Positions 54,835 through 57,428 of a stretch of 64,000 bases of DNA are shown here, piece by piece. The stretch comes from a bacterium. GTDB taxonomy: Bacteria; UBA8248. A program made the position numbers and the translations under genes. The notes beneath the pieces were generated by a model. It was not told where the DNA came from, did not search any database, and worked only from the letters and a program-made list of their open reading frames with translations. The stretch covers positions 2,048,001 through 2,112,000 of the forward strand of contig CBDCRP010000003.1 of assembly GCA_965221165.1 (NCBI GenBank). The letters run 5' to 3'. Positions within the stretch are counted from its first letter, which is position 1. Each line of letters starts with the position of its first letter.

Positions 54835-55080
54835 ATGTCGGACTTGGAAGTGACGGTGTATTCATCATCCACGTGAGCGCCCTGTAAGGCGGTGAGAGAG
54901 TTTCTCTCCCATCATGGCGTGGCGTATACGGAAAAACTCGTCGATCAGGATGAACAGGCCCTGGAGGAATTATTCCAGAGGGCGGACATGCGGGCCACGC
55001 CCGTGATTTTCGTGGACGATGAGAAGGTGGTCGGCTTCGATCGGGCGAAGCTCGAAAAGCTGCTGGGGCTCGCCGCATGA
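54835..55080 (+). CDS. Glutaredoxin/NrdH-like redoxin with in-frame UGA (putative selenoprotein, UAPC)
   Basis: GGGAG RBS, ATG 54835 MSDLEVTVYSSST-TGA(54874-54876)-APCKAVREFL...ATPVIFV....VGFD. The ORF track shows only the part after the UGA. Confidence 0.9.
54877..54920 (+). promoter_or_regulatory. Putative SECIS hairpin (glutaredoxin)
   Basis: GCGCC...GAGAG[AGUUU]CUCUC...GGCGU; the apical loop is 22 nt after the UGA with G at position 2. Confidence 0.6.
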
Positions 55081-55376
55081 GCGAAAACCGCAGGACCCTC
55101 GCCTGTCCCGGCTGAGGGCAACGCATACCCGTCCCGTGGGATGCGAAAACGCGCGATCTGGTCGATTGCGAGAATTGTGCGGGGGTGAGATTCCGCTTGG
55201 GCCGAGCGGAGGGGGCGGAGGTTCTCACTATCGTGCAGATGGTTTCATGCCCCCTTTGTGGTGAATACATACCGGTGGATGAGGACACCCCCGCAGGTTC
55301 CGTTTTCGAGCACGACGGAAAAAAACTGCGCCTCGATAAGGAATTCGGCGCATTCGTCCTGGCGCCCGAGGAGTAG
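55077..55376 (+). CDS. Tandem zinc-ribbon (LysW-like) protein with in-frame UGA (putative selenoprotein, CPGU)
   Basis: ATGA overlap with the Grx stop; MSENRRTLACPG-TGA(55113-55115)-GQRIPV...DLVDCENCAG...SCPLCGEYIPV...VLAPEE. Confidence 0.8.
55116..55145 (+). promoter_or_regulatory. Putative SECIS hairpin (zinc-ribbon gene)
   Basis: CGCAU-A-CCC[GUCCCGU]GGG-AUGCG; the loop begins with G, 15 nt after the UGA. Confidence 0.55.
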
Positions 55377-55498: not shown

Positions 55499-55891
55499 AT
55501 GGCTTCTCGACCACAGGCCACTATACCGCTGGATCACGCCGACAAATTGAATCGGGACTTGCTCGCGCAATTGGAGGAGCTTGAAAAAACTCCCGAGGAG
55601 GATCGTTGGCCCGAAGCGGTGTGGCCTACCGCTCAAGCGTTTAAGGATGCGGAAATTTTCGTTCGGAAGCTGCCGCTGGGCTCGATTCCCATGCCCTATA
55701 TAGGGCTGGCCGATGACGGGGAAGTCAATTTTCTATGGAAAAAAGATGGTGTTCATGTTGATCTTGGGTTCTATGGAACGCGTACTTATACTTACTTTGC
55801 GCACGGTAAAGATGGACACCCAATCGACGGCGAAGATATTCCGGCATCCGAAGGATTGCCTTCCGAAATCGTAGAACTGTTCACGGTCTGA
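55499..55891 (+). CDS. Hypothetical acidic protein (possible antitoxin-like partner)
   Basis: Lower GC; W...A..A..F...L....P.I....DGEV.F.W pattern. Confidence 0.65.
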   Translation: MASRPQATIPLDHADKLNRDLLAQLEELEKTPEEDRWPEAVWPTAQAFKDAEIFVRKLPLGSIPMPYIGLADDGEVNFLWKKDGVHVDLGFYGTRTYTYFAHGKDGHPIDGEDIPASEGLPSEIVELFTV

Positions 55892-55898
55892 TACAACC

Positions 55899-56417
55899 TT
55901 GCAAGCTCCTTCTCCACATCTTGACGAGGAAAAATGCGCCGCGCCGGGAATCTCTCCCGGGGTTGTCGAGGACGAGGAGTTTCTTCTTCGAGAGATGTTC
56001 AACCCACAGCATGTCCAGGATGGGGAAGTGCTTGAGACTGCGATACCAGCAAAGGACCTTTGGAAGAAAGGATTTTCTGTTCATCGGATGAAGTACGTTT
56101 CAGTTGAGTTCATAAAAAATGCGGTCGAAGTACGCCTGTCTCGTCCCAGAAAAGGCGAACCCTGGAAAGACGAGGGTGTGGCGAAGCTACAAACGCTATC
56201 TGTACGACAGCTTCTTACAGATGACGACAAAAAGGCGTTTGTTGTTATTGATACGGCCACGGAAGACAACCCCGGACATGCCAGCATATATATGGCCGAG
56301 TATATTGCAGAGCCTAAAAAAGGCGAAAGACATGCAAGGAGATTCAGGCATTTGCTTCTGGATATTCTTCAAAACAGAATGACCATAGATGAGGCGTATG
56401 CCGGTGCGATCGGTTAG
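55899..56417 (+). CDS. Hypothetical protein (possible ART/RES-like toxin fold)
   Basis: Lower GC; LLR...GFSVHR...D...DNPGHASI pattern. Confidence 0.65.
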   Translation: MQAPSPHLDEEKCAAPGISPGVVEDEEFLLREMFNPQHVQDGEVLETAIPAKDLWKKGFSVHRMKYVSVEFIKNAVEVRLSRPRKGEPWKDEGVAKLQTLSVRQLLTDDDKKAFVVIDTATEDNPGHASIYMAEYIAEPKKGERHARRFRHLLLDILQNRMTIDEAYAGAIG

Positions 56418-56471: not shown

Positions 56472-57428
56472 TTGGCAGAACGTGATTTCGAAATCATCAT
56501 CATCGGGGCCGGGCCTGCGGGGCTGACGGCGGGGCTTTATACGGCGCGTTCCAAGCTGAACGTGGTCTGCTATGAAAAACTCGCGCCCGGCGGCGAGATT
56601 CTCAACACCGAGCACGTGGAAGACTACCCGGGCTTCGAACTGGTCGGCGGGCAGGAACTGGCGGCCAAGTTCACCGATCACGCCATGAAGTTCGGCTTGC
56701 GGATCGAGATGGAAGAAGTCTCCGAAGTGAGAAAGGACGGGGATGATTTCCTCGTCGTCACCGACATGGGCGAGCGCCGCTGCGGGGCGGTGATTTATAC
56801 GCCCGGCGGCTATCCGAGAAAGCTCGCGATTCCGGGCGAGGAGAAATACGCGGGCAAGGGCGTCAGCTACTGCGCGCTTTGCGACGGCGCGTTTTTTCAG
56901 GATGAGGTGATCACCGTCGTGGGCGGCGGGAACAGCGCCGTGGAAGAGGGGCAGTTCCTCACGAAATACGGCACGAAGGTCTACCTCATTCACCGCCGCG
57001 ATCAGTTCCGCGCCCATGCGGTCTTGATGGACAGGATTCGCGAGAATCCCAAGATGGAGATCATCACCGACCACGTGGCGGAAGAGGTGGTGGGCGATGA
57101 CAGGGAGATGAAGAAGCTGCGCATCAAGAATGTGAAGACAGGTGAGACGCAGGAACTCGACGCCACGGGCCTGTTCGTTTTCATCGGTTTTATTCCGAAC
57201 ACGGATTTGATAAAAGATCACGTAGAAAAGGACGATGCCGGCTTTATCCTCACGGATCAGAACATGGAGACGAATGTTCCGGGCCTGTTCGTGGCCGGTG
57301 ATTGCAGAAGCCAGTTGATTCGCCAGATCACCAACGCATCGGGCGATGCGACGACGGCGGCGGTGGCGGCCGAGAAATATCTCGAAGCCCAGGTGGAGGC
57401 CAGGAAACAGGCCGCGGCGGCTTCCTAG
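56472..57428 (+). CDS. trxB: Thioredoxin-disulfide reductase
   Basis: GAGPAG, GVSYCALCDG, GGGNSAVEE, HRRD, FVAGD. Confidence 0.95.
   Translation: MAERDFEIIIIGAGPAGLTAGLYTARSKLNVVCYEKLAPGGEILNTEHVEDYPGFELVGGQELAAKFTDHAMKFGLRIEMEEVSEVRKDGDDFLVVTDMGERRCGAVIYTPGGYPRKLAIPGEEKYAGKGVSYCALCDGAFFQDEVITVVGGGNSAVEEGQFLTKYGTKVYLIHRRDQFRAHAVLMDRIRENPKMEIITDHVAEEVVGDDREMKKLRIKNVKTGETQELDATGLFVFIGFIPNTDLIKDHVEKDDAGFILTDQNMETNVPGLFVAGDCRSQLIRQITNASGDATTAAVAAEKYLEAQVEARKQAAAAS

Follow-up and report, generated by a model that had tools for sequence, protein, structure and literature searches.

The stretch of bacterial DNA analyzed here, hereafter the window, comprises 64,000 nucleotides of contig CBDCRP010000003.1 (GTDB lineage UBA8248) and contains a short gene at positions 55077–55376 that very probably encodes a genuine selenoprotein. 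As judged from the codons of this gene and of its relatives, selenocysteine (Sec) is predicted at codon 13. The product, referred to as the ribbon protein in the following, consists of two tandem zinc ribbons resembling the amino-group carrier LysW, and its gene directly follows a gene for a glutaredoxin-like selenoprotein (Sec-glutaredoxin). We propose that the ribbon protein is the soft-metal-binding partner of this Sec-glutaredoxin, with Hg(II) as the most likely metal ion and selenolates among its ligands. For this explanation as a whole we estimate a probability of about 0.6, while the metal-handling step taken on its own appears somewhat better than an even bet. The coordinates of all features are collected in Table 1.

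The reading frame was exactly as given in a preliminary description of this DNA. The ATG start codon (55077) overlaps the TGA stop codon of the glutaredoxin gene (55078–55080) in the arrangement ATGA, and TGA is the thirteenth of the 99 codons in the frame. The duplication within the protein reported there was also recovered: residues 1–50 and 51–99 were aligned by BLASTP with an E-value of 4e-07 (15 of 45 positions identical), and this alignment places CPG-U-G on CPL-C-G, with U13 opposite C61. The upstream glutaredoxin gene uses TGA twice, once as a Sec codon (54874–54876) and once as its stop. Because it ends in TGA, this codon is otherwise a stop signal in the organism.

A search for Sec machinery, which the preliminary description had proposed, revealed selA (507 bits), a SelB wing domain (73.9 bits) encoded by the gene adjoining selA, selD (329.8 bits; contig C2:975065–976027), and tRNA-Sec (75.9 bits) in the genome, all above the curated cut-offs. 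The selD gene carries one in-frame TGA, and is hence a selenoprotein gene itself. In a published compilation (PMC13326102, Table 2), metagenome-assembled genomes labeled Nitrospinota or Nitrospinaceae (GTDB UBA8248) figure in the top ten bacteria by selenoprotein content, with 48–54 genes. This richness fits a lineage with frequent replacement of Cys by Sec.

The evidence that carries the Sec assignment is comparative. In a six-frame search of 61 related genomes, the ribbon gene was found in 26, and its codons were read in all 26. Apart from the window genome, it was present in 20 of 36 genomes of the window's family and in 5 of 7 genomes of one other family of the class; none of the 17 genomes sampled from the remaining families contained it. 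The simple nonsense mutation considered in the preliminary description is not what the relatives display: codon 13 is TGA in 15 of the 26 genomes and a Cys codon (TGT or TGC) in 11. Furthermore, a second Sec/Cys position was identified at codon 34. In the four-ligand site to which residue 13 belongs, this is the second Cys position in knuckle 2, and the codon is TGA in 10 genomes and a Cys codon in 16. Within the window's genus, Sec-13 occurs in 12 of 13 genomes and Sec-34 in 9 of 13; one member combines Cys-13 with Sec-34. Sec-13 is found in three genera and, in the two outside the window's genus, it occurs beside Cys-bearing sister species. One of the relatives outside the genus (L142) carries both Sec codons. 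Between codons 14 and 36, 9, 5, and 17 variable sites were counted at codon positions 1, 2, and 3, respectively, the third position being the most variable. The coupling to the upstream gene is likewise shared: every start codon in the window's genus shares bases with the stop of the glutaredoxin gene (ATGA or GTGA), and in the other relatives examined it either overlaps this stop or sits a few bases off.

The LysW-like zinc ribbon suspected from the preliminary description was confirmed by three approaches in agreement. Pfam PF21344 (Zn_ribbon_LysW) matched residues 9–34 with 28.8 bits (cut-off 27). A PDB search with a profile of 20 orthologs matched residues 55–98 to LysW (3vpb_E) with an E-value of 2.6e-4. 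The AlphaFold2 model was all-beta with a mean predicted local distance difference test score of 84.4, and its best Foldseek match was again LysW 3vpb_E (target template modeling score 0.81, root-mean-square deviation 1.6), with 3wwn_B (0.72) also retrieved.

Six positions are invariant among the orthologs (C10, U/C13, C31, C/U34, C58, and C61) and H79 is nearly so. In domain 1 of this lineage, predicted Sec takes the place of the second Cys in a single knuckle or in both knuckles. In domain 2, the fourth ligand position is occupied by Asp in the window and by Cys, following H79 or C79, in distant relatives; therefore, each ribbon originally had four ligands, one of which has been lost from domain 2 in the window's lineage. 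Orthologs with the motif H-G-G (L031, L034, L035, and L036 among them) have a C-terminal extension of 15–25 residues past the last strand of the second ribbon, and a conserved Cys in an RPGC-like context is present in the extension of four of five of them; orthologs with H-D-G have no extension. This tail Cys, or the Asp, might replace the missing fourth ligand of domain 2. Across the family the C-termini vary in length and sequence, and the window protein ends a few residues past the ribbon. Judged solely from the lack of a visible signal peptide, the ribbon protein is predicted to be cytoplasmic.

The family has few members but a broad distribution. When 1.84 billion representatives were searched with a profile, 58 matches were obtained at E ≤ 0.001, 28 of them at E ≤ 1e-10, and many were full-length all-Cys proteins of 93–129 amino acids. 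With a natural all-Cys relative as query, the ESM Atlas returned only LysW-ribbon clusters from bacteria labeled Methylomirabilota/Rokubacteria. The names obtained from cluster look-ups were "hypothetical protein" and, for two members, "uncharacterized paraquat-inducible protein A". A metagenome scan with an alignment of the soil subgroup yielded at least 497 relatives, and the gene context was examined in the first 80 of these 497. No TGA was found in a knuckle in any of the 80 soil relatives.

Three isolated observations on the family are recorded here. At one soil locus (L086:4001–4360), a TGA lies at about residue 20 of the ribbon gene, outside the knuckles, and may be a sequencing error, a sign of a pseudogene, or something else. 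A metagenome protein of 125 amino acids (P0049) joins the C-terminal part of a glutaredoxin to a ribbon protein from about residue 19 onward, and could represent a gene fusion, a frameshifted sequence, or an error of gene calling. On a contig labeled Tectomicrobia (L055:40–132), a second, partial copy of ribbon domain 1 is situated about 600 nucleotides upstream of the gene pair.

The ribbon protein is an obligate, translationally coupled partner of the Sec-glutaredoxin. The glutaredoxin gene was located directly upstream, with its TGA at the same position, in all 26 genomes. Similarly, it was directly upstream in 76 of 80 soil loci, usually with a gap of 5 nucleotides, and the other four loci comprise at most 109 nucleotides of upstream sequence. 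Among the soil glutaredoxin matches that cover the Sec position, 65 of 66 have TGA. No NCBIfam model for glutaredoxins or UXX-star proteins was matched above its cut-off by the window's glutaredoxin, the highest-scoring one being that of the YruB family (TIGR02196).

Beyond the partner gene, the surroundings of the relatives are of the mer type, and the two-gene module was ancestrally part of MerA-less mer-type clusters composed of MerR, MerB-like, and MerT/E/F-like genes. Where Nitrospinota-labeled genomes lie outside the window's genus, MerE (35.1 bits), MerF (71.4 bits), MerT (40.3 bits), and MerR come after the pair. Pfam matches above the cut-off at the relatives' loci included MerF (71.4 and 43.6 bits), MerB (65 and 44.8 bits), and MerR domains. 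Genes resembling mer genes were present at all seven genome loci outside the window's genus, and additionally in six of six further genomes, three of which also have TrxB after the pair. In the soil loci, a MerB-like gene was found in 38 of the 39 with enough upstream DNA, MerR in 30 of the 31 with enough DNA, and 59 of 71 had MerT/F-like genes on the downstream side; these MerT/MerF-like membrane proteins carry Cys pairs. Genes for rhodanese and P-type ATPases are situated farther from the pair. The best NCBIfam match of the relatives' regulators was Hg-MerR, and no MerA-like flavoprotein was found at any of 104 loci. Several soil loci (L079, L087, and L127) also hold genes for heavy-metal P-type ATPases and for heavy-metal-associated (HMA) domain, rhodanese, YtkA-like, and thioredoxin-like proteins within 4 kb. 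The family context thereby points to a possible, hitherto undescribed way of handling mercury.

In the mechanism proposed, thiolates and selenolates of domain 1 would coordinate a soft metal ion, with Hg(II) as the most probable candidate. Either the transporters in the membrane, with their Cys pairs, or the MerB-like lyase would deliver this ion, and the Sec-glutaredoxin would exchange ligands at the domain 1 site or keep this site reduced. In the window's family, the neighboring TrxB would then recharge the glutaredoxin. Since the two Sec substitutions fall on equivalent knuckle positions, a bis-selenolate pair is proposed. For Synechocystis, a link between a glutaredoxin and a MerA-like enzyme is cited in PMC8261052.

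A number of observations weigh against this explanation, and they concern the RNA structure, the sample of genomes, and the metal. The G-loop hairpin pointed out in the preliminary description is indeed present: its loop is UCCCG and its inner stem begins about 15 nucleotides past the TGA. As statistical evidence, however, it does not count by itself, as its folding energy of −13.1 kcal/mol compares with a shuffle mean of −12.77 (z −0.12), and 86 of 200 shuffled sequences were equal or more stable. Moreover, Sec at codon 13 does not go with more structure than Cys (−10.5 kcal/mol for Sec-13 forms, −12.6 kcal/mol for Cys-13 forms). Most Sec-13 forms share only a hairpin core of 4–5 base pairs, which is encoded by conserved residues that are also present in Cys forms, and the divergent Sec form L037 has a different hairpin of 7 base pairs at the same distance from TGA-13, in another register. 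The hairpins after both Sec positions span +10 to +36.

After codon 34, all ten Sec-34 forms have a hairpin of 7–9 base pairs at +16 to +36, and their mean energy in this region is −16.1, compared with −10.7 for Cys-34 forms outside the genus. The Sec-34 form L142, an independent lineage, has this hairpin, and its Cys-34 sister L143 is without it. The window keeps the hairpin despite its TGT-34, with one compensatory change from C-G to U-A. In an alignment of 13 genus sequences, 97.6% of the cells were paired, yet 78 of 500 shuffles did as well, and covariation was weak. The locus stands out from chance by conservation, not by hairpin folding energy. Since the hairpin evidence is weak, the Sec call rests on the comparative evidence and not on RNA structure. 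The counts in that comparison are themselves to be read as those of kin: the 26 genomes are related, 18 named contigs largely duplicate them, and they do not represent independent events.

With respect to the metal, we infer binding solely from the homology to the LysW zinc site and from the neighboring genes. The mer-like neighbors score below the NCBIfam equivalog cut-offs, and for this reason their metal specificity is not certain. At the 11 loci of the window's own genus, no mer genes were found. In the window genome, which is 96% complete, tblastn searches gave no MerB, MerT, MerE, or MerF, and no MerA scored above the cut-off (best 368 vs. 454 bits). The link to mercury is thus one of ancestry, and in the window's lineage it may no longer apply. 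As the mer transporter and regulator genes are gone from the genus locus, the pair may now serve in general soft-metal or selenol/thiol buffering. A "Se/metal carrier", one of the roles guessed in the preliminary description, has gained support from the mer-type neighborhood of the relatives.

Among the rival explanations, the one that survives best, although we regard it as rather unlikely, accepts a real selenoprotein and takes its CxxU/CxxC knuckles to be redox-active rather than metal ligands. Electrons would run from NAD(P)H via TrxB and the Sec-glutaredoxin to the ribbon protein, a dedicated selenol/thiol electron carrier or substrate cycling through a selenenylsulfide or a diselenide, and the mer neighbors would reflect thiol stress caused by mercury. 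The obligate coupling to a UxxC glutaredoxin agrees with such a chain, as does the fact that most known CxxU-type Sec motifs are redox motifs (PMC13188914). A gene for TrxB follows the pair at 10 of the 11 loci from the window's genus, with L048 as the exception, and likewise in L049, L142, L143, and L145 and at the truncated end of L051; the genus with most of the Sec forms is also the one from which the mer genes are gone. In contrast, TrxB was found in none of the 80 soil loci. The wider all-Cys family resides within clusters of metal transporters and a metal-sensing type of regulator. The site itself also argues for a metal: its four ligand positions are invariant, the ribbon matches the zinc-binding LysW domain, and Sec, in either knuckle of this one site, is substituted at the matching second position, a pattern that ligands facing a single ion would produce.

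A bolder version of the soft-metal proposal appears doubtful. Here, the Sec-glutaredoxin, the double ribbon, and, where present, TrxB would constitute a selenium-dependent, MerA-independent system of mercury disposal, a split functional analogue of mercuric reductase. The Cys2Sec2 or Cys4 site of the ribbon protein would capture Hg(II) supplied by MerT/E/F or by the MerB-like lyase, and the glutaredoxin selenol would either drive reduction with electrons from a flavoprotein or channel the metal to an inert Hg-Se product or to efflux. If this version held, disposal of this kind would be common among Methylomirabilota/Rokubacteria-like soil bacteria and among Nitrospinota.

It is very improbable that the TGA at codon 13 terminates translation, leaving either a 63-residue protein that starts from a GTG at codon 37 or a decaying pseudogene. 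The database gene calls look like such a product: 11 of the 12 close matches are 63–75 amino acids long, and the four examined begin past codon 13. The statistically unremarkable hairpin after TGA-13 would also fit. The 63-residue product, however, would be without the two knuckles of domain 1, although these are invariant in all Cys forms. In 10 of 14 TGA-13 loci, there is no in-frame ATG, GTG, or TTG between the TGA and codon 37, and the invariant knuckles consequently need read-through there. The shortened calls thus appear as the truncation by gene callers that the preliminary description had anticipated; its alternative of homologs starting downstream of the TGA was not borne out, as full-length Cys forms exist alongside the loci without an internal start. 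Furthermore, the TGA is kept at a Cys-aligned codon in 15 genomes of three genera, the frame is intact with variation resembling purifying selection on both sides of it, the start is coupled to the glutaredoxin stop in the relatives, and the Sec machinery in the genome is complete.

A role as a LysW/ArgW-type amino-group carrier of lysine or arginine biosynthesis, suggested by the Pfam LysW ribbon above its cut-off, the LysW chains as best structural matches, and an acidic C-terminus, is practically negligible and was rejected, in line with the preliminary description, as the full-length NCBIfam LysW/ArgW model (NF041070) gave 41.1 bits against a cut-off of 75, the protein has two ribbons instead of one and ends right after its globular part with no conserved tail, the best LysX candidate (TIGR02144) reached 143.1 against 275.6 bits about 130 kb off on the same contig with none at the loci examined, and the neighbors are the glutaredoxin and mer-type genes.

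An overview of the annotated features is given in Table 1. The segment with two open reading frames between the ribbon gene and trxB has a G+C content of 0.49–0.52 (window 0.62), occurs in 7 of 11 genus loci, and is probably an insertion that is not part of the system. Scans of the 64-kb window with Rfam and ARAGORN returned no matches. Two DNA sequencing runs of one study contain the stretch and may derive from its source sample, and no RNA run is listed.

Table 1. Features of the Sec-glutaredoxin/ribbon protein locus and its downstream neighbors (window coordinates)
Feature	Position	Strand	Remarks
Glutaredoxin-like selenoprotein gene, 81 amino acids, UAPC	54835..55080	+	Pfam Glutaredoxin, 58.1 bits
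Sec codon of the glutaredoxin gene, in-frame TGA, codon 14	54874-54876	+	
Predicted ribbon selenoprotein gene, tandem LysW-like, 99 codons plus TAG (55374-55376)	55077..55376	+	
TGA codon 13, predicted Sec, motif C10-P-G-U13	55113..55115	+	Aligned with C61 of repeat 2
Candidate Sec insertion sequence (SECIS) hairpin after codon 13	55122..55145	+	9 pairs and one bulge
Ribbon domain 1, residues 9-50, ligand positions C10, U13, C31, C34	55101..55226	+	PF21344, invariant columns
Codon 34, TGT (Cys) in the window, TGA (Sec) in 10 of 26 relatives	55176..55178	+	
Hairpin after codon 34, counterpart of the one following TGA-34 in relatives	55191..55211	+	
Ribbon domain 2, residues 54-99, with C58, C61, H79	55236..55373	+	LysW 3vpb_E profile match
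Two open reading frames without known family, 55499-55891 and 55899-56417	55499..56417	+	No Pfam match
TrxB, low-molecular-weight thioredoxin-reductase-type flavoprotein	56472..57428	+	Pfam Pyr_redox_2, 164.9 bits

The ribbon protein adds a selenoprotein family that current pipelines truncate. Its Sec is predicted at up to two of the four ligands of a ribbon metal site, and not in a redox motif of a thioredoxin fold. Additionally, a conserved two-gene module is exposed within MerA-less mer-type clusters, and relatives of the ribbon protein are encoded in at least 497 soil metagenome stretches. The claim of a selenoprotein is strong, whereas the mercury-handling mechanism is a well-motivated proposal. 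If the module does handle mercury, it bears on the ways in which uncultured bacteria of soils and marine habitats detoxify or transform mercury, as well as on the antagonism that has long been noted between this metal and selenium. The natural series of Cys and Sec forms at defined ligand positions offers a handle on why selenium is chosen.

The LysW-like/PF21344 family is absent from the published selenoprotein tables of 87 families (PMC9312934, 2022) and of 119 families and subfamilies (PMC13188914, May 2026), and the ribbon protein fits no NCBIfam model. The nearest table entries are the FmdB zinc ribbon (UxxU), a dual-CXXC small protein, metal-binding UxxU and CU proteins, MerT, and SaoL, and the NCBIfam models of these entries gave no match to the ribbon protein at E ≤ 1, save for a sub-threshold match of FmdB. 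In the available part of the preprint by Haft and Gwadz, zinc, ribbon, and LysW are not mentioned. A literature search returned no description of a Sec-glutaredoxin/double-ribbon module; the 111 families of BSepDB and a groundwater survey may list the ribbon family. Apparently, the ribbon protein represents a real, undescribed selenoprotein family and its module a previously unnoticed part of mer-type clusters.

LysW carriers have a conserved acidic C-terminal arm that ends in the loaded Glu. Like LysW/ArgW (PF21344; 3vpb_E, 3wwn_B), each half of the ribbon protein is a small ribbon with two CPxC-type knuckles around one metal ion; unlike them, the protein is tandem-duplicated, has neither the carrier tail nor a LysX/ArgX partner, and has predicted Sec at ligand positions. 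A second comparison is provided by the rubredoxin operon of Clostridium pasteurianum, in which a YruB/NrdH-type glutaredoxin-like gene stands beside a small Cys4 metalloprotein. Coupling of such a glutaredoxin-like gene to one for a small protein that has CxxC knuckles is common to both cases, and the partner studied here scores best on the YruB model TIGR02196. It falls short of the cut-off, however (78.4 vs. 88.55), the window's glutaredoxin is a selenoprotein, and the ribbon is LysW-like and not a rubredoxin.

The preliminary description had regarded Sec in a metal-binding knuckle as an unusual type of selenoprotein. The Sec assignment is supported, but there is a predicted precedent for the type in the FmdB-family zinc-ribbon selenoprotein (TIGR02605, UxxU) from ocean metagenomes (PMC9312934, PMC13188914). 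That protein is also a small zinc ribbon with Sec in place of Cys in a CxxC knuckle, and it is the only such precedent in the tables of both reviews. The ribbon protein does not belong to this family by score (14.4 vs. a cut-off of 31.3), and the placement of Sec differs: FmdB has Sec at both residues of one knuckle, whereas the ribbon protein has it at the second residue of two knuckles (CxxU...CxxU).

MerP and the N-terminal domain of MerA are mercury metallochaperones of mer-type systems. The use of Sec where mercury or organometals are handled has precedent: MerT, a "metal-binding protein UxxU", and the MerB-like SaoL are listed as selenoproteins (PMC9312934, PMC13188914; preprint by Haft and Gwadz). 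The ribbon protein and its relatives differ from the chaperones in having a ribbon fold instead of a ferredoxin-like HMA domain, in being always paired with a Sec-glutaredoxin, and in having no MerA nearby. They share with these chaperones and selenoproteins the small Cys/Sec pairs that would hold Hg(II), as well as the clustering with MerR, MerT, and MerB-type genes.

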